From positions 315,991-379,990 of the forward strand of contig NC_089312.1 in assembly GCF_036669915.1 (NCBI RefSeq): a stretch of DNA of 64,000 nucleotides, written 5' to 3'. The notes below the pieces were generated by a model that ran no database searches, was not told the DNA's origin, and was given only the letters and a program-made list of their open reading frames with translations. Every line of letters starts with the position of its first letter. The first letter of the stretch is position 1. Positions 1-45,600 of this stretch are shown one piece after another. The position numbers and the translations under genes are program-made. The DNA is from Pocillopora verrucosa. Its lineage: Eukaryota.

Positions 1-3000
1 ATGACTACCACAGTGGCAACACACATGGTCAATGACATCACAGCTAAATGTCTCACTGCCAACCATTGTTCCGCCGCTGACCGCATGCATACTGCCGTCA
101 TGTGCTGATTTTGCAATCTGGATAATCAGAAAGTTTTACGAGTTAGCAATACGGCACACGGTACGATCGCAAACCTCTTGGAGATCTGTGAAAATGCGTC
201 GAGATATCCAGAAGAAAATGGGACGGTCCACGCCCGACAAGAGGCCTAATTTCGAGGAAACGAGGCGCGGAGAGAACAGGAGTGCGAGACAATGGGACTT
301 CACTGTACGGATTTGTTTAAAAGAAACATGCTGGGTGGGGGTCTTATGATTTTGGTTTTGTTACGATAAAATTTATCTGATCCTCCCCTAAGGTTCTGTA
401 GTATTTTAATGACGGCAGTCAATTTTTTCTTCTCCCCTGTTCACACTCTGTTAGTGACGACCGATTCTACCCTCCGTCCCCCCCTGAAAGCCATGTGATC
501 TCCCCGCAAATCCTCCGACCTCCCTTCCCCTCCCTAGGCAATAATCCATTACTGTTCCCTGACTGAAACGTTTGTCCGACTGAAGTAAAATGAATTCCGA
601 AATGATAGACAGGATATCCTCAATTACATGGAGGTAGGTCGTGACATCAATAACAAAACTTACCTGAAAAACTCTTTCATGAAGTAGCTTTCCTTTTGAG
701 AGGCTCGAATGGTGACCGCACCCATCATAGTATCCGAAAAATATATCATCAGGGGCGTTAAGGTGTTGTTTTCATTATCTCTGGCCTGTCGCTCCAACCA
801 GAGATATTTTTTCCCAACCACAAATGAGATAAGAGATGCGGGTATGAAAGCAAACACCGTCCACGGAGCTACTAGCGTGATCATAACAGCCACTGCAGCA
901 TGTTCTACCACCGACTGTGCCAACTGCAGAATGTCGGAGGGGAGCTTCTCGTCCAAACATTCTACATCTTTAGAAAATACTCTTAGGAAAGCATCCTTCT
1001 CTTCGTTTTCAAAATGTTGGACTGATGTCTTAAGCAGTGTAGAAATAGCTCTGTCGTGGATGCGCATGGACGATCGAAGGCCACACAAGAGCAGAAACAG
1101 AGCTCTAAGAAGAAGCAGTATGACATAGGCTCCCACAACTATTGCAGACAAACTGAAGTGGTGGTAGTGGTAATCACGAGATAGATCTGCAATTCGTGCA
1201 AACCATATTCCAAGACCTGCGAGGACGACTGAAAGAGGAAAACAACGTTATCGAATACAGCTTTCAGCATATAAATATTGTGGATTATTTATCATTTTAA
1301 GGTAGGGTTCGAAGCAGATATTTCTGAATAGACATTCCTTACCTCCTGGAGTTAATGTTAACAGGAAACCTACAACTGACAGTGATGGAAGCCATCCTGT
1401 TTGCCTCGCATATCTCAGATAGATAGAAAATCCTTCAGCATCTCGATCAGTGATATTTTTGACGCTTGGTTCCCTCAAACTCGCGGAAAGGATTCCACCA
1501 GACAAGGATTGTTGGACCACTCCACTGTTTTCTCTCTCATGGATAGTGTCTGTCCTCAGCCACGTGAGATTTTCACCAGACTCCCGAATGTTATCGAGTG
1601 ATCCCTCTCTGATAATAAGGCCATCAACCATCAGCAACACACGTGGACACCTCTCGAGGAAACTTGCTCTACCCGTCACCACGACACGCAGACGAGACGA
1701 GAGAAAACTTAGGATGCAATCATCGAAGACCTGATTGGCTACTGAGATGCTTACGTGACTAAGAGGATTATCCATTAGGACGATGGACGCTGATGAGTAA
1801 GATGCGCGTGCTACGTTTATGAGTTCCTGCTGACTAAGTGCTAGTTTGTAACCACCATGGCCAATTTTAGTCATATCACCATCCGGTAAACACTGCATGG
1901 CTTCATTCAGTTTACAAGCTCTTAAAACAGCTGAATAGCTTTCTTTGATGTAAGGTTCCCCGAAAACAATGTTTTCCCGAACAGTTCCTGAAAATATCCA
2001 TGGCTTTTGGCCAACGTAGGCGAGGTCACCATGTTGGACTATACGCCCCCTTGAAAGTGGAACTTCTTTCAGTATAGCCTCACAGAACAGTGAAGTAACG
2101 GCCCCTTCCTTAGGGGGCCCTGTGAGTGCGACAAGTTGTGCACCTTCGCAGTTAAAAGTGACGAAGTTTAGATCAATATCCACCAACTCACATTCGCGTT
2201 CGCAGCAAACTCCAATCAAAGAAAGACTCGGAGGTTTGTCGGAGGGAGGGACCTCACTCGTACGACTTGCTACGTTTTCGTAAAACGATGACAACGGAAA
2301 GTCTATTAGGAGAAAACTCTCTATTCTATCGAGCAGGCCAAGTGTTCTTACAAGGACATCTGTTCCTCTGGCAAAAGATTCACCGCATGAAGACTCGAGT
2401 ATGTACATTACTAATATGATCAAGAATACGTTCTCGTGGGTGAGTTCTTTTCCACTCATCATTAATGTTACTATGGAAACTAAAGAGGCTATGATGGGAA
2501 CGGCTTGTTGAACGGATACAAATGCACCAAGAGCCAGCGTTTTATTCCTGATGAAAGGCAGCTCTTTCCTGGAAAGAAAAACACGTATATTAAGAATAAA
2601 ATTAAGAAAACAAGTAAGTAAGGAGGATCTGTTCGGTTGCTTAATTAGCTTTTGCCTGTGGACTCAACATGTCACTGAGACATTAACAGTTTGCCTTACC
2701 GATTGACTGACCAGAGGCTGGTTGACAGATAACTCAGTTTAAAAGTTACCGGATTGGTTGACTTAATGACCGACTCATTTACTGACTGACTGACTGATCA
2801 ATTGACTGAATGACTGACTGACTTACTGCCTGACTGATAGACTTACTGACTGACGAAGATACTGACTGACGAAGATACTGACTGACTGACATGCTGACTG
2901 ACTGACTGACCATCCGACTAATTGTAAATGGAAAGTATCCGTGACACAAACCTGCGACTATTCCCGAGCAGTTTCTCAAACACTTCTTCCCACACGTTCA

Positions 3001-4092
3001 TTTTTATAACTCTTATACCACAAATAACCTCGCTCAACAGGGCGATCCGCTGGTCACTGAAAAACGCAGTGCCGAGGTGCATTTTTTTGTACACTTTCCC
3101 CACCCCACAGCGTAAAAATGTACAGAACATGATGTAGGAAACTCCCAACAGAACCTCCCAGCCAACCATCACAAGCAATAACAAGACATAATCAGTAGCT
3201 CGACAGGCGCGGTGAAGAGGAATGGTACCGAATAGACACATGAACCAATAGAATCCAAATCTTTGGATATCAAGTTAACCACGTGACTACTCGTATAATG
3301 AACAAGAGAAGTTTTCTTGAGGCGCATAACCTGAAAAGCAAAGTTGTAGTTAGTTTAGAATCTTTCAGGTCTTGATTTGATCTATTATCAAAATGGATAC
3401 AAAATGATCAGTTAAAAAGTATACCGATCTTTCTACCGATTCACCGAGTGAACACATCCGGAGAGTAAGAGGAAGAAAGAAAAGTTTATAAATCAGAAGC
3501 ATTCGCGTGTTTGTATAAGGATTACCTTATCAAATACCAAACCATCCAGACCAGATTTTACCGACCCACTTGTCATTTCAGCAGAGTAAGAGTAATGACT
3601 CCGCACCAGACCCTCAACCGAGACAGACAGCCATAGCCAGTGAGTGCGGCCCAATACCACGGTACAGGCGAAACGAACAATGGGTCTGAGGTGAACACAA
3701 ACGAGAACATGGTTGGTTGTAGAATACGTGCACAAAGAATGGAGATCTGAAGCAAGAACAGTTGAGTGAAACCCTCAATTTTCAGAAAAGAGAGGACGAC
3801 TTTCCACAAACGAGGCGCTTTGTCCCGCGCTTGTGCTGATCGCGCGTGTTTCATCCATATGTCACGCAGGTCTCTCCAGTTCCAGAAAGTCGAGCGTTGC
3901 CCGGGAACGAGCCTATCAACTGATTCCTGGGCACTATTCAATCTTCCCAGTACCCAGCTGAACGTCACACGTGACCAAAATGATAGTTCTTCTGGGGCAT
4001 CTTTCTTGTTTCCCTGTGGTACCTCCATAGGGACCTTGTTATAAGAGTACTGAGGTGTGGCATTGAACATAGCGCCTTTTTTAACATCGGAA
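1..4092 (-). CDS. ABCC (MRP)-type ABC transporter gene, short ABCC4/MRP4-like architecture (no TMD0); gene-level span, partial (3' part continues beyond window start)
   Basis: Minus-strand ORF segments align in order with TMD1 (3525-4070, 2952-3260), NBD1 (1343-2568) and start of TMD2 (664-1228) of ABCC4/MRP1. Examples: LSFWSRVTFSW~FLSRITFWW; EVICGIRVIKMNVWE~[36 protein letters not shown]~[33 protein letters not shown]~SKDIGHLDDLLP. GT-AG introns are phase-consistent from the 2952 exon onward. Confidence 0.88.
664..1228 (-). CDS. ABCC TMD2 exon (TM7-TM9 region); acceptor CTCTTTCAG at 1229-1237, donor TTCAG|GTAAGT at 663
   Basis: VLAGLGIWFARIA...[52 protein letters not shown]...TIRASQKESYFMKEF aligns with ABCC4 TMD2. 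In-frame junction with the NBD1 exon (G + TC = Val). Confidence 0.8.
1343..2568 (-). CDS. ABCC exon encoding TM6 + complete NBD1 + linker + TM7 start (1226 nt, single exon). NBD1 motifs are degenerate.
   Basis: Acceptor TTTTCTTTCCAG at 2569-2580 (minus), donor GGAG|GTAAGG at 1342. Walker A reads GPPKEGAVTSL (canonical GPVGAGKSSL). Signature reads LSQQELINVARA (canonical LSGGQKARVNLARA). Walker B reads IVLMDNPLSHVS (canonical IYLLDDPLSAVD). H-loop reads VVVTGRASF (canonical ILVTHQLQY). Q-loop AYVGQ is retained. Confidence 0.85.
2745..2925. repeat. (TGAC)n-based imperfect microsatellite in ABCC intron
   Basis: tgactgactgactg... runs with TGAT/TTAC variants. The ORF translating it (SVSQSVSQ...) is a repeat artefact. 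Confidence 0.9.
2952..3260 (-). CDS. ABCC TMD1 exon (TM3-TM5 region); donor CGCAG|GTTTGT at 2952; 5' boundary uncertain (phase conflict with upstream exon)
   Basis: LRCGVGKVYKKMHLGTAFFSDQRIALLSEVICGIRVIKMNVWEEVFEKLLGNSR aligns to ABCC4 [54 protein letters not shown]. Confidence 0.7.
3525..4070 (-). CDS. ABCC first coding exon (TMD1 N-terminal part). ATG at 4068-4070 (MFNATPQY...), acceptor CCAG at 4093-4096 implies an upstream 5'UTR exon. Frame discontinuity near 3590-3610.
   Basis: Two overlapping ORFs (3573-4163 and 3493-3735) each match consecutive parts of ABCC4 TM1-TM2/ICL1 (GCLSRLRV~GMRLRV, then TSGSVKSGLDGLVFDK~TTGQIVNLLSNDVNKFDQ) but in different frames. Donor GATAAG|GTAATC at 3525. 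Confidence 0.6.
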
Positions 4093-4557
4093 TCTGGAAA
4101 AAAAATCCCATTAAGAGCTCGTTGGTATAACCAAAACAATGATTTGATTTTTAGTACTTTCAATTAGGCGAAGAGCTTATAATTCACAAAAGAAAATCCT
4201 TCGATCAATCAACATATGAGACAAGACTGACGAAGCGGCATGAATTTTCAATACAATAAAGGAGTAAACTTCTAAAGAAACTGTGTTGCTGCGTCGGTGG
4301 GAGAGTATAAAAAGGTTATTTGGTATTATCAAACGAGCTAATAACGTAAGGTGGCCACCTCAAAGGGTTTCAAAGCAGACATTTCTGTGTTAGCCCTTCG
4401 TCAGAGCGAATCATTCGCCAATTTACGTTACCAACTAAGTTGGTAACAGCACATTACCTTGCTTCAGACTCCATTGTCATAACAATGCATGGTGCTATGG
4501 TCTGCTGATCAAAAACAACAATGCTTTTTTTTCCAAGATCAATCTTCGAAGATCTAC

Positions 4558-4563
4558 CCTATA

Positions 4564-4595
<32 letters not shown>

Positions 4596-4600
4596 CACAA
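4558..4600. repeat. (TA)n/(TATG) microsatellite
   Basis: ctatatatatgtatatatatatatatatatatatac. Confidence 0.9.
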
Positions 4601-5165
4601 ATTTAGAAGAGAAATCCATTTTCTCACTTTTAATTAATAGAAGACCGATAATAAATGACTATCCGACAGCCGCGAGGAAAAATTCCTGATGTTTGACTTA
4701 ACTTATGGCTTGTCGTTAGACAAATGGACCATGACAAAAACTGTAGATTCTTCGTTTATGTAAATTCTTCTGTAAAGGAGCAACATGATTAGTCCCACTC
4801 TATCTTTTCCAGTATAGCAAAGAAAGAGAGGTTTCAAGGTTGCAAAGAGAATGCAGAAACATTTGCTATTAAAACGGTAAAAATCTAATGATTGTATTCT
4901 AAGCGTTTTAAGTTAAACGTCGCTGAAAGTGGTATGTGTGTCGATGACCTTGCAGTCGGGAGAAAAATTTTGCCATCTTAAAATGTTGATGCTAGATATT
5001 GATGGCGGTTTGAAGCTTACCCAGTGCACTAAATCGCTGGAAGTTTTGAACGAAATTTTTGTTTCATGCGATTTTTAGAGTGAAATTTTTGCCTTTTAGT
5101 TCTAAGCTTTTCATTGTTGGGGATAAAATGAAGACGCATTTATAAGTCATAGGGAACTAAATTAC

Positions 5166-5425
5166 CTCAGAGATGAATTCCAATGGGGTCAAGTCTAGTC
5201 CATCGTGGTACTCAAAAAGGTATTTCTGATCAGTGTATTTGTTAGGATGACAACTGCGATAGCGTCCAGTACTCAAAACTAAGAGGTTCTCTAAAAAATC
5301 TTCACACGCTTCAGTCCTGCACGAAACATGACAAAGAGAATAACTTGGAAATCCCTCGGGTAACCTTCTAAGCTTTTCGCTCAATTGGCATGGTCCATCT
5401 GGCTTCTGTGAGCTCTTCAGTTGGC
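5166..5425 (-). CDS. Isolated coding-like exon of unknown identity (possibly a 5' exon upstream of ABCC or a separate gene)
   Basis: Open frame LSGQLKSSQKPDGPCQLSEKLRRLPEGFPSYSLCHVSCRTEACEDFLENLLVLSTGRYRSCHPNKYTDQKYLFEYHDGLDLTPLEFISE, ending at a strong donor TCTGAG|GTAATT. No family recognised. Confidence 0.3.
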
Positions 5426-7094
5426 CACTCAGTTAAAAAGGACTGATTAAAAGAGACGGATTGCAAATACGCTTAAATAGTTTGGCAGACAAAGATGCTT
5501 TCTAAAAGTTTTGTTTAATCATCGCAAAGTCTGTGGGGTTTTGCAGAATTTGCTGAAGGTTAATTACAATTCAAGCTGTCAGCTCAATATAATAGCTGTA
5601 GAATAGGACGCTGCATTTCCCTTTTAGTCAATGCGTCAATTGTGTTGGGTTTGTACTACCTGTAAGAATGCTCTCCGCCTGGGAAATGGTAAGTAAGAAG
5701 TTGATAAACTCTTCTACGGTAAGCTTTACCTTCCCCCTGCGATCAGCTACAAATTCCTGCGCCCACTCTCCGATTCACCTCATTTTTTAATATTATCCCC
5801 AACCCCACCTTCCGTTACGTCACCTGCGCTAGTTAAGCCATTTTAAAGAGCGCGTTACTCAATTTTTGTTTAAAAATCCCCACCAAAGTTTGTTCTTTCC
5901 TCTCTCTCTCACCGCGTGCACCTCGGAGCTCATTTTTAAGGTCTCACAAGACGCGCAAATCTTTCTCGGGGAAGGCGGGGGAAAGGCTGGATCAACCTGC
6001 CATTACCTGTTTTTTTGGCACATGCGAAAGACCGATCCGATTTGAACAATAAATTACTTCTACATAAAATATAACCCTCAATTTTTAAGGAATGAAGGTG
6101 GTTTTAAATTTCTGCCGGGAATGATACAGTTAAATGTTTAACACCTTGGAAAAAACATGTATATGAAAAATTCCAATAATTAAACAATACATAGAAGTTA
6201 AAAAAAAAACTATCCCTTTGCGAAGAATTTAAAAAGGACCTCAACGATGGTTGCATGTTTTAGACTGCATTTAATACAGCGATGAAATCTACAGTTATAA
6301 AATAAACCCCTCAAACAACACTGAATTACATGTATTTCAATCAGATATTCCTAAAACCTGCAAGGAATAAAAAAATTAACTAATCTCACATTAAACTGTA
6401 ATAATTTTCAACCATACAGATCATATTCCATACTTGTATCAATTTCATAATTTTATCAGACAAATGGAACTAAAACAATTTGTAAAATTATGCAAAAAAA
6501 GTAATTATGATTTGGTAGGAAGTTCATTTCCTGCATATTACTGCATCCAATTTCCCAATTCACATCATAAATTAATCAAGACCGCTCTTTGATATTGCCT
6601 AGGAAATCACTGTGTAATAACTAATAAATAATTAAAAATTCCTATAATTCCATGCATTTAAACAATTATTGATAACATCAAGCTTTGAGTTTCCATTAAG
6701 ATTTTCTTCATAAAAATGCATGGATTTACCATAATTAACATGCTATAACAGAAAGCCCCCTTAGTGCCATATTGTTACAGTTAAAATGTAATGTAATACA
6801 AAATGTTTGCACAAAACATTTTAAGGATTCCAGAAGGATCACTATGAGTATTACCTGGTAAAGCAATTATGAAAAAAGTAACAAAAATTATTTTCCATTT
6901 TGGATCCAAATGGCATTTTCAAATTTGTGGATCATTTTTGGAACAACTAAGTGTGTCCTTTTTGTTGGTAAATACGACTTTTTTTTTCATTCTTACAATT
7001 ACATCAACCACTGATATTAGTGTTAGTATTAAAATGATAATATGAATGAGTGATATCTAAAATGTATGTATTAACTAACAGGCTATTGAAGTTC

Positions 7095-9297
7095 TTAGCA
7101 CTGATCAGCTTTCTGGGACAAAACCAAACACTTCAACTCTGGCACAAAGGAAATCTTGGGTCTCAGGAGTTGTTCATTGCCAAATGTCTCAGTTGGACCA
7201 CTGTGTCCCCGACAAAGCTCATTATCTAACCATATGGCATTATCACCCCTGAAAAATAACAGTGCTTGGTTTAAGGTTATAAAAAGAAACAACAAACAAA
7301 CCAACAAGAAAATTCAGTCTGGTATATCAGACAAGCACCACATAATTTTTCTACATCTGCTTTAAACTCTTTGCCCATACCACTTTAGCTGACTTACCCG
7401 TCCCTAGTCCTAAAACAATTGTCATTACTCACCCTCCCCCAATCATGAGAAACATTTGTCATCTCCAGCCAATAAACAAATCCTTGGTACCTGGGCCCTC
7501 CTTCTGTAGTCCTGTCCATAAATATCTAACAGAGCCTGGGACTCTCCCAGGCCTAAAGACAAAACTTTCCCCAGTAACCAAAATATGATAAGAGTTTCTG
7601 GGGCCCCTGTGGTTCTCTCACTCACATCTGGATGTGACCAACAACCTCCAATGATCTGTGGCTGATAATAAAACACAAATTAATAATAAGCCCAATTGAC
7701 ATCAAGAGAATGTTTGATCTGCTACAGAAACCACATAAATGCCTTCAGAAAGGATTCCATTTCACAGGTAGAAATAAATCTGTAATTGGCTCCGGATGAT
7801 TTAGGCCATTAAAATGAAGGCATCACAGGAGGCATTATAGCCCAAAGAACAATAAAGTGATCCAGATTTATGCACTTTTCATCACAGTTGATGATTTAAC
7901 ACAAAACTTGACATCTCACCTCACCAACAGATGATTTGACTAGAAGAACTGTCTCGTCATCACCTTCACACTTGTTGTATAAAGTTCTTATACTGAAATA
8001 AAATAAAACTCTAATTCACAAATTCAATACCTAAAGAGAGGAGGAATCTTTTGAAATATATCACCTAAAAATTGACAGAAAATAATCTTCATTAAACTCT
8101 GTATAAGTTAATCTGTGCCTATGACTCCTATATACAACAAAAGAGTTCAGCTTTATGGTATTACACAATACCTGCATCCATCAGTGTCTGTGGTGAACAA
8201 GCAAATAGGTCTCTTAATGCGTAACCTGTCTGGTAGCCATGATGACAGTAACTCCCACTGTAAACAAACAGATTAAAGGAATAAGAAATCTTTACCCAGA
8301 GAGCCCTGAGGGTTTTCAGGAGGTCCTAAAGAGGAAAAATTAGATATTAGTCACTTTTAACATATAAAGGGTTAATTAGCAGCAATATTAACCTCTTGTA
8401 ATGATAGCAAGTTGGAACCTTTAACTGCAAACACAGTCAGGGTCTGAACTGGTGCCCAGGTCTGCTGAGGAACATCCAACAATCTGTTCTCCAATAAAGT
8501 TATATTTTTACTTTTCAGTCTTTCCAGCTGTTTCCTTGAGAGACCTCGAATTCTGAAAGCTGCCTGTAAAAAGACAAAAAAGACAATAAGAAATAAAATT
8601 GGGTGAGTAAAAACAAACATTCAAGCTTAGAGAGATAACAGTATCATTTTGGACAGCTCAAGAGAAGGTTGTCCTGAGCTGTCCACTTCTCCATACAAAA
8701 TCACTAACCTGAAGAAGCTTGTATCCCCTCAAAGGCATAAGTGATGCAAACTGTTTAAACAGATCCTCTAGGTTTCCATTTTCTGATACTTCTGCTTTAA
8801 AATGAAAAAGATCTGATCCATTGCAAAGCCATAACTCTAACAACACCCAGCACTTTTTGTGCAATGATTAACTACAAAAGGGCAATGAATATCTCATTAA
8901 AAAATCCTCATACCTTTATTAATTTGCATCAATATAATCAATAACTCAAAGTACCTTCTTGTTCAATAAACTTTGCAAACTGACTGAATACAATCAAACC
9001 AACACGCACAAAAACTTTGGGTCCTTGGACAACAAAACTATCAACAATGTAGACCTAAAAAAAGACAAAAAAAATTACACTGAACTAAGTGCTCATAAAA
9101 AGACAAATTATTTTATTTAAACTTATTGATGTCATGCAGAAACTTTGACAAAAACAAAACCCTGCACCTACCAGTGTCCAAAAATCAATGTAATGGAACA
9201 TCCAGATAAGCCAATCAGGAATAAGAATAGTGTTTTTACGCAACTGTTCTCCCTTTGCTGTTTCAATAAATTCCTTGATCTGTTTGTAAGATGGCAT
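7095..9297 (-). CDS. Multi-exon gene of unknown identity (gene-level span; exons approx 9170-9297, 8658-8864, 8372-8620, 8170-8268, 7925-7990, 7443-7676, 7095-7307)
   Basis: Minus-strand ORF blocks flanked by good acceptors/donors (e.g. ACACAG|ATGCC at 9298, CTG|GTAGGT near 9170, GGTGAG|GTGAGA near 7925). Peptides include WELLSSWLPDRLRIKRPICLFTTDTDGC, IIGGCWSHPDVSERTTGAPETLIIFWLLGKV and RGDNAIWLDNELCRGHSGPTETFGNEQLL. It could be the continuation of the TBC gene or a separate gene; the family is not recognised. Confidence 0.4.
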
Positions 9298-10051
9298 CTG
9301 TGTTCATAGAATCAACAACAAAAAAAAAAAACAGGAACAATCACAAATTGTTATGTAGTAGTTTAAACTAGAATTATTTCAAACTGATTTGATTTTTTTT
9401 CCTTTGTTTAAGGATTATTGTAATGTATATGAAGCAAAGGAAAAGACTAGGACAGCATTTCTCCCTATAATATTAATACTATATCAAGCAGACAAGTAAT
9501 GAGAATAATGAAAAATATCAATTAAGGGATTATTAGTTGATTCAATACCAAATTCTCCCACCCTAAATCATAAGAATTGTATGGCAGACAGTAAGGAGTA
9601 TCACTAATGAGATCTTGGGAGAGAAAGGGTTAAAAACAATTCAATCTAAACTTCATTTTAAACTATTCATTTTCAACCCTAGGCAATACACAAACAGTAC
9701 CATTAACCCTTCAACCCCTAAGAGTGACTAGCATCTAATTTCTCCCAACAATATCACCACTAAATCACACATTAATGTCATGAGAATAATGGAAATGATC
9801 ACCAACTAAAGAAACTCTTGATTGCTAGAGAAATTCTCCTTGTCAGCATATTAGTAAATGTGCAGAGAACAGTGTGGAGAATATGCATACTGGTGTTAGG
9901 GTGTGAAGGGCTAAAACCATATAAAAATCTAAAGAAAATAATTTGTACCAATCTCAACACAAAATTTTTCACATAGTTTTCAAATATTTAAAAAATCATC
10001 CAATGGCCTGGTGCAAAAGTTTTAGCAATACCCATTGACAAATCAACTTAC

Positions 10052-10365
10052 AAAATAAGACTTCAAAGAATCTTGAAATGTCTTTGCCATCACAGCAAAG
10101 GCCCTCTGACTTTGGTCCAACATAGAGCGGTGAGAATTCACTAAAGCAGACATACAAGTATAACAAAGATTTTCCTCCATGAAATGAAGGAAAAGAGATG
10201 TTAATGGTGGAACCAAAGGAGCAAATTGGATATCAGGGTGCATGTGAGACAAGATATAAAGGACTTTTAGACAGGTCTTCTCTCCATCTGGTGATAATAG
10301 GTATGAAGGAACATTTCTGTTGCCACTAAAAATTGTTGAAGGTATACTGGAGGGTACTTGAATAC
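10052..10365 (-). CDS. TBC1D20: TBC1D20-like RabGAP, C-terminal TBC-domain exon (acceptor TTTTGCAG at 10366-10373, donor TTT|GTAAGT at 10051)
   Basis: ...STIFSGNRNVPSYLLSPDGEKTCLKVLYILSHMHPDIQFAPLVPPLTSLFLHFMEENLCYTCMSALVNSHRSMLDQSQ aligns with TBC1D20 GTIFALSW...HVLSDFRHVVRLYDFFLACHPLMPIYFAAVIVLYREQEVLDCDCDMASVHHLLSQ. Phase matches exon 1 (G + GT = Gly). Confidence 0.55.
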
Positions 10366-10384
10366 CTGCAAAACAGTGGTTACA

Positions 10385-10680
10385 TCATCAATCAATCAGT
10401 CAGTCTCAAGACAATGATCTTAAAGTCACATACAGAGACTTTGCTCCTTATAAAATAATGCTGAAAATGTCATCCTTTTACATTTGGTATGGTTGAGATA
10501 AAGTTTGCAAAGGTAGGTTAACCATACCCTATCCCTATGTCAGTCGGTCAGTCAATCAGCCAGACAGTCAGTCTGTCAGCCAGCCAGACAGTAAGTTAGG
10601 CAGCCAAACAGTCAGGCAGGCAGCCAGACAGACAGTCAGGCAACCTGACAGTCAGCCAGTCAGTCAATGAAACAACCAAA
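10385..10680. repeat. (CAGTCAGC/GACTGAC)-type minisatellite in TBC gene intron
   Basis: cagtcggtcagtcaatcagccagacagtcagtctgtcagccagccagacagtaag..., related to the TGAC repeat at 2745-2925. Confidence 0.85.
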
Positions 10681-10980
10681 ATTTTTGTGTCAGTCAGTAT
10701 ACAAAAGTTCAAACAAAGAAAGTCTTTGTAAGTGAATTTGACAAACATCACAAGTCTCAAGGTTGAAGATATAAAGAAAAAGACCTTGAAATCTACAGAA
10801 AGATCAGTCTTATCTACATGTAGGATGCCTGCTTGCATGCAAGAGGTCAAAATTATGTTTCTCCACTGTGACTCTGAACATGTCTCTGGTTACTGCTGCT
10901 TTTTTTTTTTGTTGATCCTGCCCACAATCATTAATTTTCACTGTAACACAGTAATGTTGAGACAATGACTGATAGCTCAC

Positions 10981-11365
10981 CTATGTCATCAATCATTTCT
11001 TCATAATAGTGAGGAGAGTTAAAAATGATGTCAGCTCCACCGCTAGAATCCTTCCACAGTTCAGATCTGAGTTTGGGAAGGACACCTTGTCTAACTAGTT
11101 TCTTCAACTGCATGGTTTCCTCGTGCTCTGGATGCTGTATCCACATTTGTAAGGCTTCTTTAAATTCATCCTCAGAATATCTTGCTTTTGGTAAGTAGAG
11201 TTTGGAGACAGAAGTTCTCGAATCTTGTCTAGATGTTTTTCTCGATCTTGATAATTTTCTGGATCCTTTGGACGTTTTGGAGTCCTCTCTGTGCAGTTTT
11301 ATATCTGAAGAAGAACTCTCTACCCAGTGCGAGAAGAACGTACCGCTTATCTCGATTAATTCCAT
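10981..11365 (-). CDS. TBC1D20: TBC1D20-like RabGAP, first coding exon (ATG 11363-11365; donor GACATAG|GTGAGC at 10980)
   Basis: ...ETMQLKKLVRQGVLPKLRSELWKDSSG... matches the TBC-domain start (TBC1D20 LRRMAISEGGLLTDEIRRKVWPKLL). The exon ends MIDDIG|, resembling the IxxDxxR arginine-finger context with the Arg expected in the next exon. Confidence 0.6.
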
Positions 11366-11903
11366 TATTTACACGCAGCTATACGGCTGATGTCTACTGA
11401 TTAACAAGTGCTCACAAGGAGTAACTGAAGCATTTAGAACCATCAGTTGTACACGCGTCTTTCACGATACACACAACACGCTTCTGCAGTCCAAATCATG
11501 AGATCGCTTTTTGATAAATCAAGATATATTTAGAACCCTGTCTTCGAAATCAATGCCGTCAATCGCTTCTCACTAATTCCGTGTAATTTCTTATTTCATC
11601 ATACTTCTCGGAACGACTGTGCACGATAGAGGTAATCAAAGGTCACGATGATTAAATATCTAGTTTCTTCACAGATGACGTGACATGTAACATTAGAAAC
11701 GGGAAAAAATGAGGAAAACCTTTAACTTAAAGACCATCGGACAAAGTCTGTTATGTTCTCCATGTTGACACGGGTATTTTTAGTTTGGATTAACCAAATA
11801 TGGAACCTTCGGTCCCAGTCTTAGTTAACGTGGTACTTCTTTCACTGTCGCTACCATTCTTGATTAGCTGAAACCTTCACTTGAGGTTGAAATCGAAGTA
11901 ATT
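11366..11903. promoter_or_regulatory. Putative bidirectional promoter / 5'UTR region between divergent TBC1D20-like (minus) and TRIM-NHL (plus) start codons
   Basis: 538 bp between the two ATGs on opposite strands. Contains the CRE/ATF-like TGACGTGA at 11676-11683. No ORF is present. Confidence 0.35.
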
Positions 11904-14126
11904 ATGGATGTTCCAACGTTGATGCATAACCTAAAGGAGGAAGTAACTTGTTCTGTATGTATGCAGTTATATACAGATCCCAAACAGCTGCCTTGTCTAC
12001 ATACATTTTGCCTACAATGTCTTAACAATGTTGCTCGAACAAGCAAACGAAATGGCATGATAAGATGTCCTCTTTGCCAACGTGAAGTAGCTGTGCCTGA
12101 TTGTGGTACAATGGAGTCTTTACCAGACTGTTTTTATCAAAAAAATCTTCTGGATATTTTGGCCATCAAGAAGTGCGGCAATGCTAAAGTGACTTGCGGT
12201 AACTGTGGTGAGAAAAACGAGAAAGTGTCTTATTGCTTCCATTGTGGGGAGTTTTGGTGCAGTGTTTGTCTAAGTGGGCATAATATCATTCGTGCGAACA
12301 AGGATCATCGTGTTCTCTCATTAAAGGATTTCGAAGACAAAGACTTCGAAGATGTTCTTAAACGACCGGCTTTCTGCTTGAAGGAACTCCACGAGCGACA
12401 AGTGCTGAAATTTTTCTGTAAAATGTGCAACGTCCCCGTTTGTCAAACTTGTGTCATAGTCGACCATGTCGGTCATAATGTTGAACATTTGGAGTTAACG
12501 GCGAAAGCTGCCAAGGAAAACATCATGATTCAATTAGACTTGGCTAAAAGTGCTGGTAAAACTCACACATACCTCAAAGAAGAGATGAACGAAATAGAAA
12601 ATTGCACTAAAGCCACCGTTGAAAAAATAAGAAATACAACCCAGTCAATTATTGGAAAACTTCAACAGTTTGAGCAAAAACTCACTTCAGAAGTTGAAGA
12701 TAAGGGCAAGGCAGCACTTGAAAAACTTTCAGTAAGAAGTACAGCATATCAGGCACAGTTGACCAAATATGAAGAAACCATATCACAGATTGAACACTTG
12801 GTTAACAGAGGTACTGCAGCAGAAGTCGTGCAGTTGCAATCCCATGTCAGTAAGTCCCTTCATGAATTGAAGATTGAACCCCCATGTAGAAATGAAGGTG
12901 AGGAAAGGTTAATTTTGGACTTCATTCCAAACCACTCTTTTCTTGAAAAGATTGATGATCTTGGAAGTACAGCACTGGGTACTCTGTCATGTAGTGCAAC
13001 TGTGGCAAGTAAGTGTACTGTAACTGCAAAACGTACAGCTATGGTTGGTGAAGAGACAAAGATTGAGATTGTCTCAAGGAATTCACGTGGGGATCAGTGT
13101 TACAGCTCAAATGACAGCATTTCCTCAAAATTTTCCCTTGTGGAAACAAACTGTTCACATGACTTTGTGTGGGAAACAGACTGTTCACGTGACTTTGTGT
13201 GGAAAACAGTGGATGAGAAGAATGGAAAGTATATAATTTCCTTTTACAGTAATTTGTTGGGAAAGGTCAGGGCTCAGTTCACAATAAATGGAGAACCTAT
13301 AAAGCAGACTTTACTTCTTAACATAAAGGGGAGAACTTATGCATCTGTGGATGTGATTCATTCAGACTTTTATAACCCATGGGGAGTTGCTGTTAATACC
13401 TCAGATGACATTTACGTTACTGACTTGAACAATAAAAAAGTGAAGATTTTGAGAGATCATGAGCCTTTTTCAAGAACCTTTGCATGTGATGTGTTTTATT
13501 CTCCTTCTGGAATCTGCACTGATTCTTCAGGAAGGATCTATGTCACAGACAGAGGTTTAAACAGAATACTTCTGTTCAATTCCAAACATGAATTATGCAA
13601 AAAGATTGGAGATGAGGGAGGACTGAAAGAACCACGTGGGATATCACTAGATCCTGAGGGAAACATTATTATCTGCAATTCAGGAAAAAGTTGTGTCCAA
13701 CTGCTTTCCTCTGAAGGGGACCTTCTCCTAACCTATGATGGTAGAGCTTGTGGACTTCAATTACCATTTGACTGCACTTTCCATGAAAACAATGTATATG
13801 TGTCTGATTTCAAAGGCCATAGTATCAAAGTTTTTAATGACGTTGGAGAGTTTTTATTTCAATTTGGTGAAGAGGGATCTGGGAATGGCCAGTTTAAATC
13901 ACCAACAGGACTAGCAGTGGACAAAGCAGGAAATCTCTTAGTTTGTGATGACTACAACCACAGAGTGCAAGTTTTTACCAAAGATGGAAGGTTCCTATCA
14001 AAGTTTGGATGTTATGGAAATGAAATGGGACAGCTGAATAAGCCAACGGGCTTGGCAGTCTGTCGGAATGGTGACATTGTTGTTGCAGAATTTGGAAATA
14101 ATCGTCTCCAATATTTTAGAAACTAG
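11904..14126 (+). CDS. TRIM-NHL family E3 ubiquitin ligase (RING, B-box1, B-box2, coiled coil, filamin-type Ig, 6 NHL repeats); complete single-exon 740-aa ORF
   Basis: ATG at 11904, TAG at 14124-14126, no internal stops. RING: CSVCMQLYTDPKQLPCLHTFCLQCL...CPLCQ. B-boxes: CGNCGEKNEKVSYCFHCGEFWCSVCLSGH and CLKELHERQVLKFFCKMCNVPVCQTCVIVDHVGH. NHL repeats include YNPWGVAVNTSDDIYVTDLNNKKVKIL, LKEPRGISLDPEGNIIICNSG, FKSPTGLAVDKAGNLLVCDDYNHRVQVF and LNKPTGLAVCRNGDIVVAEFGNNRLQYF. Confidence 0.95.
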   Translation: MDVPTLMHNLKEEVTCSVCMQLYTDPKQLPCLHTFCLQCLNNVARTSKRNGMIRCPLCQREVAVPDCGTMESLPDCFYQKNLLDILAIKKCGNAKVTCGNCGEKNEKVSYCFHCGEFWCSVCLSGHNIIRANKDHRVLSLKDFEDKDFEDVLKRPAFCLKELHERQVLKFFCKMCNVPVCQTCVIVDHVGHNVEHLELTAKAAKENIMIQLDLAKSAGKTHTYLKEEMNEIENCTKATVEKIRNTTQSIIGKLQQFEQKLTSEVEDKGKAALEKLSVRSTAYQAQLTKYEETISQIEHLVNRGTAAEVVQLQSHVSKSLHELKIEPPCRNEGEERLILDFIPNHSFLEKIDDLGSTALGTLSCSATVASKCTVTAKRTAMVGEETKIEIVSRNSRGDQCYSSNDSISSKFSLVETNCSHDFVWETDCSRDFVWKTVDEKNGKYIISFYSNLLGKVRAQFTINGEPIKQTLLLNIKGRTYASVDVIHSDFYNPWGVAVNTSDDIYVTDLNNKKVKILRDHEPFSRTFACDVFYSPSGICTDSSGRIYVTDRGLNRILLFNSKHELCKKIGDEGGLKEPRGISLDPEGNIIICNSGKSCVQLLSSEGDLLLTYDGRACGLQLPFDCTFHENNVYVSDFKGHSIKVFNDVGEFLFQFGEEGSGNGQFKSPTGLAVDKAGNLLVCDDYNHRVQVFTKDGRFLSKFGCYGNEMGQLNKPTGLAVCRNGDIVVAEFGNNRLQYFRN
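13141..13200 (+). repeat. In-frame 30-bp tandem duplication inside TRIM-NHL filamin domain
   Basis: aaactgttcacatgactttgtgtgggaaac / agactgttcacgtgactttgtgtggaaaac encodes ETNCSHDFVW/ETDCSRDFVW. Confidence 0.7.
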
Positions 14127-27887: not shown

Positions 27888-28362
27888 CTAGAAGAAATTT
27901 TTAACCACCAGTTTGATTTTCTTGCGGCACACTGGACATTTCTTTTTTTCTTCCTTTAGTCTCTCCGCACATCCAATGCAACACACAAGATGACCAGTTC
28001 TTCCATGAACAATACTAGCATTTCGAGGTTGCGTCAAGCAAATTATGCACAAGTCAGGTGTAAACCCTGATGCAGAGTTTTCATTGTTGAAGTTCTGTAG
28101 CAAAGTTTTGCTGGGATTTTCAGCTTTTGATGTAGTGTGATTTGAAGCATGAGACAGTCTTTCAGTATTCTCCTTTACTGATGAAGATGAACCCTCAATA
28201 TATGATGCAAGATTAGGAAGTGGCGCAACTGTTGATAATGCCACTGTTGAGGATGGATGGTCAATGGTTGGTGTAACGGCAAGTGATGAAGATTTTTGTA
28301 GAGAATGTGAGCATGATTTGTCTGTTGATCCTGTTAAATCTATATTAGGTTCTGAAGTCAAT
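27888..28362 (-). CDS. MDM2: MDM2 terminal exon: Ser-rich linker + C-terminal RING finger; stop at 27888-27890
   Basis: CIICLTQPRNASIVHGRTGHLVCCIGCAERLKEEKKKCPVCRKKIKLVVKNFF vs MDM2 [54 protein letters not shown]. All Zn ligands are conserved. Acceptor TTTTCTATTTATAG at 28363-28376. Confidence 0.9.
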
Positions 28363-42600: not shown

Positions 42601-45600
42601 TTAGCCATTCCTATTTCATAAGGGCTAAACTCCATCCATTCTGTTGTAAAAAGAACGTATCATACAAGCTGACGCATTTACAACTTGTCCGACTCTCACT
42701 ACGTCTAGGCTAATGACAGAGTTCTTACGCTGTTTTCATTTCTTTGATCAAGTTTCATAATATTTTGCACTTTTGATATCTTTATCATTTTTCAGTGAAG
42801 TACGCATGCAGTTCTATGTTGCAATATCGATTATCTGACTTGGTCTCTCCAAGATCAGTAGTGATATATTTTACTCACGGCTTTATCATAATTTCCTCAA
42901 CCTAACTGCATCTTTTTTGCAGCCTTACCGCGTTAATTCCACAATTTTTACGCATCCAAAATTTCACACTATCCATGATTCTTGTATTACTATCACACTA
43001 AATTTGTCTATGCCTATTTGGAATTGCTTTACAATATGGTGCGACTTAAACGAAGAATATTTGAAATCTTACCATTGTATGCCTTAGCCGAAACATCATT
43101 CTTCACGTGCACACATGTGTAAAGCGGAAGGGGAACGTTCCCGTGTTTGACTGCGCCACGTTGATCGCTCAGTTTCGGAATATTTTTGAGCTAAAAACGA
43201 AATTCAAGAAACAATTACTTAACAAAAATTACGGCTCTTACATTTGGCAGACTTAAAGAGCGGCTGAAAAGGAAACACTTGTATTCTTAACATATTCAAC
43301 AAACACGCTTTCAACTAAGATATTATTGGCAGACTTAGATTAGACGGCAAACTCTTCGACAACAGGGTGATCACAGACTGAGCGTGATCATACATCGAAT
43401 GCAAGTTGAAATTTAAAAAACGGCGTCACGATGTAGTAGCGTCTGCGGTGAGACCTAAAATGAACTTGTCTATGGTTCTGCGCGGTTTGCGGCATCTTTT
43501 TGTCCTATATCATTATTACAGTTATTAATCTGAAAAGGATTAATAGGATTTCAAGTAATACTTACGTCTCTCAATATGGTTTCACCCACGAGGTAGCCAA
43601 AGAAATCGGTAAAACTGATTGGCTGGCCTTGTATTTTTTTCTGATGGATGATTTTGATGTGCTTGTACAACCACGAAGGTGTCAACATCCAGATCCAGTT
43701 GTATTGCACGTTTTGCCTCAGCTGTTCCATCACTTTCTTTGGATGGACATTTGGAAATTCAGGATGAGAATACAACGTGGAGAGGTACCTAAAGTATGTA
43801 AAAGGTTAACAATGTGTCGTGATGCATTGCGCAAAAAAACAGCGAAAAGAAAATTGATGTTAGCGCGCAGCGAGGAACTCTTGAGGTAAGGCGCACGAAA
43901 AGGAGCAACCGTAACATTTATGTGCCTCACTTCCACACTCCCGCGTGGTGCGCAAAAATCAACCCTTTTTTTTTTGCTGATTCTTTTGCATGCACGACGG
44001 ATTTCGTTACAAACTAAGAGAAAATTACGGGTGAAAGAGGAACAATAAGGCGGAATATTTTGATTGCATCAAAATCTTTTTTTAATCTTTTTACTTACGC
44101 TGAAACGCAATTATTTTCGTTCAAAGAATACCTTTCCCTGTCTTCTTCGAGGTCGTTTTTATCGACAAAAGTTTTCTCCTTGCAGTTTCAAGCTATATCG
44201 TTTTTGCTGGGAAAAACAGATCCAGGTTAAGCCCCCTATGTATAACACGGTAGACTGTCTTCTGTTCAAGAGACTATTGTCTTTTGTATAAACTTACCAA
44301 GTTGATCCTGACAATCCCGCGGCATACATGGCACAGTCCAACACACCCATATCTTCTAGCGCACAAAACACACCACTAAGGCCAACCATGGCTCGAAAAC
44401 CACCTCCGGACCCAACAATACCCACAGTTGGTATCTAGGAGGAAAATAACGACTATGAATAAGTAAGACAAACCAATGCAATTTATCTTTGAGCTTTAAT
44501 TTGACACTGTCTCCAAATACTTTAAATTGGTTACCATCAGAAACCTCATGTTCATCTGTTCCTGGGAACTTCACATTCACCCGTTCAGCAATCGACGAGC
44601 TGGGCCAGAGGTGGGAAGGGTTGGATAGGGGAGGGTAGGTAGGGATTTGTACCCCACGAGATAAAAATATACCTTAAATTTGTTAATGCTTTAGTACCTC
44701 ATACCATAAAGTACCGAAAGTTGTTGAATGTTGTCAATGTACAAACACAAAAAAAGTTATTGAAAAACGAAAATATTGTTTATTTGAATACCCCAAACGC
44801 TTGACCGAGCCTGACTTCTAAAGGTGTTTGTGAGAAGGAAATTACACGGAAAAAAATAGAAAAATAGGCTAACCTCATCCATACTCTTTGGTCCTCTTGG
44901 TCCGAGAAGCTTCCTCATCGCTTGAAACAAGAAAGGCTTCCTGTTCTCTCGAAAATCGATTTCATCCTTACATAGTTTCAAGCTGTATCGCATGTCACGG
45001 GGCTCTGCACTATAATGCAAATTATTCTTTTCAGTTTACTGTTTGCATTTTAGATGGAAGGATGACCTTTAATAAGACAAAATGAAAAATTTACCAGTTT
45101 TTAAGCTCGAGCGTAATGTCCACCTCTGAAGTCTGCATGCAGAAATGAAGAAAGAAGTAGACAACGTTAGAACTGTTTGAAGACATTTCACAATTTTGAC
45201 ACAAATTCTAATCGAGCTTAAAGTCCGAGTAAAAAGTGGATTGGTTAGTAGAAAAAAGAAATTTCTATCTAAATTGTGCTGTATTTTTTTCAATCACTGA
45301 TATGTAAAACACAGAAGTGTACCTACGTCGTAAAACAGATATCAGTACACACTCCTCACCACCAGTTAAACAATAAACATCAATCAGTGTAAACATAATC
45401 TAGACTTTCTGACAAAAATAAACACAGAAATACTTGCAGATGAAAATGACAGTTTACAATACTTTTGGTCTCGTTAATTCGTTACACAATTTCCTAAACT
45501 GTACACAAAATCAGTACCTGTCGAAATACGAAAGTTTTGCGCAAAATTCTATCGATTTCCAGACCACTCAAGGGAAAGGTCTCTGTTTCCCCGACCAAAT

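Follow-up and report, generated by a model that had tools for sequence, protein, structure and literature searches.

ATP-binding cassette (ABC) exporters are defined by possessing one competent ATP site or more, and nucleotide binding and hydrolysis are kept even by the ABCC proteins that serve as something other than pumps, CFTR (ABCC7) and SUR1/SUR2 (ABCC8/9): both Walker A motifs are retained, ATP is bound at both sites, and hydrolysis takes place at site 2 (PMC7756269). Human ABCCs combine one degenerate site, in which the Walker B Glu is replaced by Asp (by Ser in CFTR), with a consensus site 2, while their Walker A motifs are intact, and in ABCC4 (MRP4) one ATP site is degenerate and the other consensus, with Walker A intact in both nucleotide-binding domains (NBDs). 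More extensive changes within a single site are also known. In site 1 of Pdr5, for example, the Walker A Lys is replaced by Cys, the H-loop His by Tyr and the signature is altered, and the protein is still functional (PMC7756269). Here we describe a gene at the start of a 64,000-nucleotide stretch of the coral Pocillopora verrucosa (contig NC_089312.1 of assembly GCF_036669915.1, positions 315,991 to 379,990, analysed over its whole length and hereafter called the window), which encodes a short ABCC protein of the ABCC4/MRP4 type. Pdr5, TM287/288, TmrAB and ABCG5/G8 resemble this protein in that several motifs change together in one site, yet in all of them the second site is canonical and drives transport, whereas in the coral protein neither is canonical. 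We consider that it is probably a conserved pseudo-ATPase, an ABCC4-derived paralog with both ATP sites crippled, which acts without the energy of ATP.

The window contains the first five of the six exons of this gene, the fifth of them only in part (Table 1). In exon 3 one frame is free of stops over 408 codons, the other two being rich in stops, and since there are only 4 open reading frames (ORFs) of at least 180 amino acids across all six frames of the window, its open frame is not a product of chance. AG and GT stand at its borders, and as read from the sequence its junctions with the adjoining exons (2952|2568 and 1343|1228) are in frame, in agreement with a first-pass annotation made from the same DNA. 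That annotation also described an intact open exon, which stands, although its length of 404 codons belongs to an ATG-to-stop ORF (1248..2462) that runs into the intron. The exon 3 product scores 27.9 bits against Pfam ABC_tran (cut-off 25), and its best matches among solved structures are to ABCC4/MRP4 (E = 1e-52). When the six exons, all with GT-AG borders, are assembled from a Tara Pacific scaffold (L004), they form an uninterrupted ORF of 1254 codons, the product of which contains two ABC_membrane and two ABC_tran domains (Pfam), arranged in one polypeptide as TMD1-NBD1-TMD2-NBD2 (TMD, transmembrane domain). This product matches ABCC4 at E = 2e-144 and aligns with it end to end from residue ~20-47, depending on the entry. 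ABCC4 is top both in PDB sequence searches and in a Foldseek search with a model of the NBD1 exon, and like the coral protein it lacks a TMD0 and has the same coupling-helix motifs and Q-loops; the closest structural match of an isolated domain is CFTR NBD1 (TM-score ~0.9). A second ABCC gene, or tandem ABCC paralogs, were not found in the window.

Residue-by-residue alignment with ABCC4 confirms the first-pass annotation in that NBD1 is ABCC4-like and keeps the Q-loop Gln and the Walker B Asp. The Walker A motif of this domain, by contrast with GxxGxGK[ST], carries a 2-residue insertion and has Thr at the Lys position, and GK[ST] is absent from every frame of the DNA encoding the P-loop. In place of the A-loop Trp stands a non-aromatic residue (Asp/Glu in the alignment), next to a conserved Cys-Cys pair; Walker B reads LMDN against LLDD in ABCC4, the Asp being followed by Asn and not by Asp/Glu; and the D-loop is SHVS in the window, SHVD in the wider family and SAVD in ABCC4. 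The annotation had read the Walker A, the D-loop and the change of the H-loop His to Gly in the same way. It was also right that the signature is degenerate, but its version of this motif (LSQQELIN) was two residues out of register with the correct LALSQ, which leaves the conclusion unchanged. It had also noted that known ABCCs are degenerate only in part; CFTR and SUR do keep both of their Walker A motifs.

A protein search returned an identical exon ORF (P0001), together with 25 distinct homologous exon ORFs of 52-71% identity, and a degenerate Walker A, signature and H-loop are present in 25 of the 25, with the consensus TGPPxAGAGTS / LTLSQ / LLDNPLSHVD / TRR. In an alignment of 23 sequences of this exon family (A1), columns T149, G150, P152, G155, A156, T158, S159 and L160 are invariant (TGPPxxGAGTSL, with Thr in place of Lys). 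The degenerate motifs (TGPPxAGAGTSL, L[TN]L[SG]Q, LLDNPLSHVD and VTRR) are indeed among the best-conserved columns of the alignment, and at the P-loop 10 of 12 positions reach 90% conservation or more, where the mean column identity is 62%. Outside the clade, the nearest relatives possess a canonical or near-canonical GxxGxGK[ST] and either LSGGQ or LSAGQ, and an exhaustive HMMER scan of 1.8 billion cluster representatives recovered one representative of the family at 430 bits, followed by ordinary ABCCs at 265 bits, a gap that sets the clade apart. Given that the degeneracy is shared by the homologs while the nearest outsiders are near-canonical, the sequences indicate that it is a derived and fixed character of a tight ortholog clade, as opposed to private decay. 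The closest relative outside the clade, a 539-aa ORF with 40% identity (P0122), has the same exon shape, the flanking motif GEDLVWLKSG and the terminal PGG at the splice site, and in it the H-loop His is already Lys and the D-loop is altered; however, its Walker A is canonical (GRSGSGKT), its signature near-canonical (LSAGQ) and its Walker B LLDE. P0122 may consequently represent an intermediate sister lineage. Two groups of invariant cysteines are also specific to the family, namely SCG in TM6 (exon-product residues ~60-62 in A1; TM, transmembrane helix) and VCC at the first NBD1 strand (residues ~120-122), where ABCC4 has the A-loop aromatic.

P0001 is located on four Tara Pacific coral-metagenome scaffolds (L001-L004), which are 97-99.5% identical to the window, extend past its start and derive from the same or a sibling species; the target genera of Tara Pacific are Pocillopora, Porites and Millepora. 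Six further genomes, represented by long contigs from holobiont assemblies in the European Nucleotide Archive (L005-L010), carry the same gene with all exons open. An intact six-exon gene of ~1250 codons is thereby found in seven genomes, and L004-L010 are without stops or frameshifts. In two divergent homologs (L006, 12504..14510, and L007, 11679..12510) exon 4, which encodes part of TMD2, is interrupted by an extra intron, which is absent from the other five genomes.

NBD2 is encoded beyond the start of the window, and its state had been left by the first-pass annotation as something to check; read from the four Tara scaffolds, it is degenerate and not canonical. Where ABCC4 has the Walker A sequence GRTGAGKSS, the window species has GQKNAKTIS and its relatives have GQKDARASS, GERDAKESQ, GEKHAKKTS, GQKDVRASS, GQKDAGGSS and GQKDMKASS, a pattern of free drift. 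The signature is FSNSR in the window species and FS[NDYH]S[RQ] across the family, against FSVGQ in ABCC4, and the H-loop, AH-RL in ABCC4, reads AYGPIGL in all seven genomes, with Tyr and a 3-residue insertion. Walker B is ILDE in six of the seven and IFDG in the window species. In the NBD2 exon of L005 (13109..14170), 52 residues between the Walker A position and the Q-loop are duplicated in tandem and in frame (AAKLMLMSKESFGD...SSLRKNL, twice); this is seen in that genome only, and may be either a real insertion or an assembly artefact.

Site 1 of the protein consists of the NBD1 P-loop GPPxAGAGTS, with its insertion, its Lys to Thr replacement and the loss of the A-loop aromatic, and of the NBD2 signature FSxSQ. 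Site 2, normally the catalytic one, consists of the NBD2 P-loop GQKDARASS or its variants, the NBD1 signature LTLSQ and the NBD2 H-loop Tyr. The window species therefore presents neither the Walker A, LSGGQ, Walker B Asp-Glu and H-loop His that make up an ABCC4-type consensus site 2, nor the Walker A Lys, A-loop aromatic and Walker B Asp-Asp of an ABCC4-type degenerate site 1 that still binds ATP. As NBD2 is also degenerate, no consensus ATP site remains, and every residue class for phosphate clamping and catalysis is lost. Retained are both Q-loop Gln, both Walker B Asp, the D-loop region and the coupling-helix motifs NLISKDLD and FSKDxECLDEKLP.

Constraint on the gene was estimated from nonsynonymous and synonymous substitution rates (dN and dS) by the Nei-Gojobori method (NG86), over ~1230 aligned codons from the seven genomes, with dS saturated (above 1) between deep lineages. 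The dN/dS ratio is 0.18-0.31 for all 21 pairs, away from the neutral expectation of ~1, and in the closest pairs (dS 0.2-0.3) it is 0.25-0.38 for the NBD1 exon and 0.16-0.28 for the NBD1 core; bootstrapping gives 95% intervals of 0.14-0.49 for the NBD1 exon (exon 3) and 0.12-0.54 for the NBD2 exon (exon 6). A three-point decomposition of pairwise distances gives an omega of ~0.19 on the branch of the window species, which is not elevated relative to the other branches. Within the species, the density of single nucleotide polymorphisms (SNPs) is 0.96% in exons against 2.6% in introns, and the exonic SNPs comprise 15 synonymous and 21 nonsynonymous changes. Identity within the family is about equal for NBDs (62-73%) and TMDs (64-71%), whereas in comparison with human ABCC4 the NBDs (32-37%) are better conserved than the TMDs (22-29%). 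That the NBDs evolve no slower than the TMDs within the family, yet slower relative to ABCC4, is consistent with a loss of catalytic constraint under a persisting constraint on the fold. Purifying selection on an intact gene is thus shown for at least seven genomes.

Because both ATP sites have lost key residues and selection nevertheless keeps the gene intact, ATP-driven pumping is an unlikely role for the protein. If it is indeed a pseudo-ATPase, a transport cycle based on ATP hydrolysis would, judging by its motifs, be impossible, and the NBDs would survive as a folded cytosolic scaffold module, with its coupling to the membrane domains preserved. The protein would then act without drawing on ATP for energy, its most plausible role being that of either a passive carrier or channel-like pathway or a ligand-sensing or regulatory subunit, and its solute or ligand might be unlike the anionic substrates of ABCC4, that is, non-anionic. 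Relevant in this respect are seven replacements relative to human MRP4 (F324Q, R362D, L363S/G/A/D, L367E/G/D, F368S/A, W995I/L and R998F/L/V) at residues with a role in its ligand pocket (PMC10202912), as a consequence of which a cationic and aromatic site for organic anions gives way to small and acidic side chains. The human ABCC4 sequence used for this mapping was checked at 12 published residue identities and by its length of 1325. The linker between NBD1 and TMD2 is likewise acidic, and ~40 residues shorter than in ABCC4. A wider hypothesis, which we put forward only tentatively, is that in stony corals a pump of the ABCC4 type gave rise to a membrane protein that is independent of nucleotides and has a remodelled, acidic cavity, serving as a passive pathway or channel or as a sensor or regulatory subunit. 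An AlphaFold model of exon 3 based on A1 supplemented with canonical ABCCs (alignment A2) has a pLDDT (predicted local distance difference test) above 90 in the NBD core and superposes on the NBD1 of CFTR and MRP1 at 2.2-2.6 A; since canonical ABCC sequences dominate A2, the model bears on compatibility with the fold only, and not on the geometry of the P-loop. A model from the shallow family alignment A1 reached a pLDDT of 38 and was discarded.

Comparison with described ABCCs places the coral protein, by ancestry and architecture, within the ABCC4 clade, although the sequence departs from ABCC4 at the ATP sites that define it: both sites lack the Lys of Walker A, the glycines of the signature and the His of the H-loop, and the seven pocket residues are replaced as well. 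CFTR and SUR are similar in employing the ABCC fold in non-transport roles, and so offer a precedent for a channel or regulatory function, but differ in that CFTR has an R domain and SUR a TMD0-L0, neither of which is found in the coral protein. Where a CFTR-like channel would have the R domain and ATP-gated dimerisation of its NBDs, we find a short acidic linker and lost ATP-site motifs, and where a SUR-like subunit would have a TMD0-L0 docking Kir6 and NBDs that bind MgADP, we find a short N-terminus of ABCC4 type and degenerate Walker A motifs. Searches of the literature for a doubly degenerate ABC exporter, or for this coral family, yielded no description.

Several observations weigh against the interpretation of the protein as a pseudo-ATPase that functions without ATP. 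The loss of ATP binding is deduced from motifs, and Walker A Lys mutants can bind ATP weakly, while the striking conservation of the NBD1 P-loop in the family hints at some ligand. No ORF spanning an exon junction, as would be derived from a transcript, is present among the database matches, although the database may not sample transcripts; the full 1254-aa query returned only distant canonical ABCCs (such as an ABCC4-like protein of Oculina patagonica, 29%), and not even the exon ORFs of the family, and is therefore uninformative on expression. A dN/dS of 0.2-0.3 represents only moderate constraint, and the window species has drifted beyond its relatives (GAGTS to GAVTS, SHVD to SHVS, TRR to TGR, and ILDE to IFDG in NBD2), which could reflect ongoing relaxation in that lineage. 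Finally, the window copy as assembled is frameshifted twice, at ~3633 in exon 1 and at ~3184 in exon 2, where tblastn alignments made with the full protein and with exon peptides of L005 switch frame.

The first of these points can be extended into an alternative explanation, in which the protein still depends on nucleotides. Non-canonical residues would bind, and perhaps slowly hydrolyse, ATP or another phosphate ligand, and the protein would work as a gated transporter or channel in the way that CFTR or SUR does. Consistent with this, few stretches of the family are as well conserved as TGPPxAGAGTSL, Gln in the Q-loop and Asp in Walker B survive in both NBDs, Asp-Glu is present in the NBD2 Walker B of six of the seven genomes, and degenerate sites of other ABCCs are able to bind ATP stably without hydrolysing it (PMC7756269). 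Yet the explanation must accommodate the absence of the Walker A Lys from both NBDs and of the A-loop aromatic from NBD1, two signatures that lack Gly-Gly, the replacement of both H-loop His and the free drift of the NBD2 P-loop between species, as well as the Gly to Val change in the NBD1 P-loop and the lost Walker B Glu in NBD2 of the window species itself. Consequently, we regard it as unlikely, and the first-pass proposal of a non-hydrolytic ABCC paralog gains support from the motif degeneracy of both ATP sites, next to relatives that are canonical or nearly so.

An explanation that we view as quite improbable is that the deletions are real and the window copy is a young unitary pseudogene or null allele, in which the motifs have eroded under relaxed constraint. 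Besides the frame switches, it could draw on the departures of the window species from near-invariant positions (G157V in the P-loop, Asp to Ser in the D-loop, and the NBD2 catalytic Glu to Gly) and on the 21 nonsynonymous against 15 synonymous SNPs, a ratio that does not suggest strong constraint. However, both frameshifts result from deletions of 1 nt in short runs of T that are absent from four of four independent Tara assemblies, in which both exons are in frame and the ORF is uninterrupted. In a comparison of window positions 1..14000 with the Illumina-based scaffolds L001-L004, there are 37-49 one-nt indels per 12 kb; in 30-33 of these the window is the one that lacks the base, for the most part within A/T runs. 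Between one Tara assembly and another the count is only 4-9 per 20 kb, such that the window shows a ~10-fold excess per kb. Given the absence of the deletions from four assemblies and the window-wide excess of homopolymer deletions, the frameshifts are probably artefacts, most likely assembly errors bearing the signature of unpolished long reads, and we do not take them as evidence of decay, a null allele private to this copy being the less likely alternative. Nor is omega on the branch of the window species any higher than on others, and SNP density in exons is well below that in introns; the splice sites of the gene are all GT-AG. By extension, other genes of the window assembly may carry spurious frameshifts. 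The first-pass annotation had likewise argued against a decaying pseudogene, which accords with the seven intact genomes, the dN/dS of 0.18-0.31 and the degeneracy shared by 25 homologs; of the two signs by which it would have recognised one, canonical motifs occur in none of the 25, while frameshifts elsewhere in the copy do exist, as the two probable artefacts. It is exceedingly improbable, and in effect already refuted, that the NBD1 motifs are a misread or misassembled canonical NBD1, including the mistranscription of GxxGxGKS that the annotation had allowed for, as, in spite of the many single-base errors in the window assembly, four independent assemblies match the NBD1 exon without gaps at 99.1-99.5% identity (the protein differing at two residues), no frame encodes GK[ST], and homologs from other genomes, 25 in all, carry these motifs too.

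The coordinates of the gene, its motifs and neighbouring features are collected in Table 1. The Tara scaffolds have gaps or Ns at the intron-2 microsatellite, and a dinucleotide repeat lies ~500 bp upstream of the ABCC start codon. The TRIM-like gene is encoded on the strand opposite to that of the ABCC gene, ~8 kb upstream of it, and belongs to a very large family (1768 database matches at E<=1e-50); its best named matches are scleractinian (Oculina patagonica, 48%; Porites lobata, 33%). Two exon-sized ORFs with recognisable domains indicate further genes in the window.

Table 1 Features of the ABCC gene and its surroundings, in window coordinates unless a scaffold is named (TM, transmembrane helix)
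Feature	Position	Strand	Description
Exon 1	3526..4070	-	Start codon (MFNATPQ...), N-terminus, first part of TMD1; GT donor verified
Exon 2	2952..3330	-	TMD1 (TM3-TM4), coupling-helix motif NLISKDLD; Pfam ABC_membrane on the intact Tara version
Exon 3	1343..2568	-	End of TMD1 (TM5-TM6), whole NBD1, short acidic linker, start of TMD2
Exon 4	664..1228	-	TMD2 (TM7-TM10), invariant coupling-helix motif FSKD[VMI]ECLDEKLP; Pfam ABC_membrane
Exon 5	1..117	-	TMD2 (TM11); truncated by window start
Exon 6	Outside window; Tara scaffold L004 12997-13910		TM12, NBD2 and stop codon
Walker A / P-loop, NBD1	2091..2120	-	GPPKEGAVTS; family GPPxAGAGTS; human ABCC4 GP--VGAGKS
Q-loop Gln, NBD1	2007..2009	-	Retained (AYVGQKPW)
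Signature (C-loop), NBD1	1830..1844	-	LALSQ for LSGGQ; family LTLSQ or LTLGQ
Walker B and D-loop, NBD1	1749..1784	-	IVLMDN (1784..1767), then SHVS (1760..1749)
H-loop position, NBD1	1671..1673	-	Gly; family Arg; ABCC4 His
1-nt T deletion, exon 1	~3633	-	ctattgg to cta-tgg; private to window against four Tara scaffolds
1-nt T deletion, exon 2	~3184	-	tctttg to tc-ttg; private to window against four Tara scaffolds
(TGAC)n microsatellite	2759..2919		Intron 2, non-coding; 20-bp period, ~38 copies (Tandem Repeats Finder)
(TA)18 dinucleotide repeat	4560..4595		Upstream of the ABCC gene
TRIM-like E3 ligase gene	11904..14126	+	Single exon, 740 aa; RING, B-box, filamin, NHL repeats
Exon-sized ORF	27888..28361	-	C3HC4 RING finger, E 1e-12
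Exon-sized ORF	45494..45931	-	C2 domain, E 1e-9

Annotation is likely to give genes of this kind the label ‘multidrug resistance-associated protein 4-like’, and inventories of coral chemical defence to include them, although they are probably non-pumping. If the wider hypothesis is true, the family would represent a further independent exaptation of the ABCC fold, after CFTR and SUR, and the first ABCC in which both ATP sites have been abandoned while the NBDs are kept as structural modules under selection, a selection maintained through deep coral divergence (dS above 1). As a natural pseudo-ATPase, it would reveal to what uses the scaffold of an ABC exporter can be put without its motor, and which features of the NBDs are structural and which catalytic.

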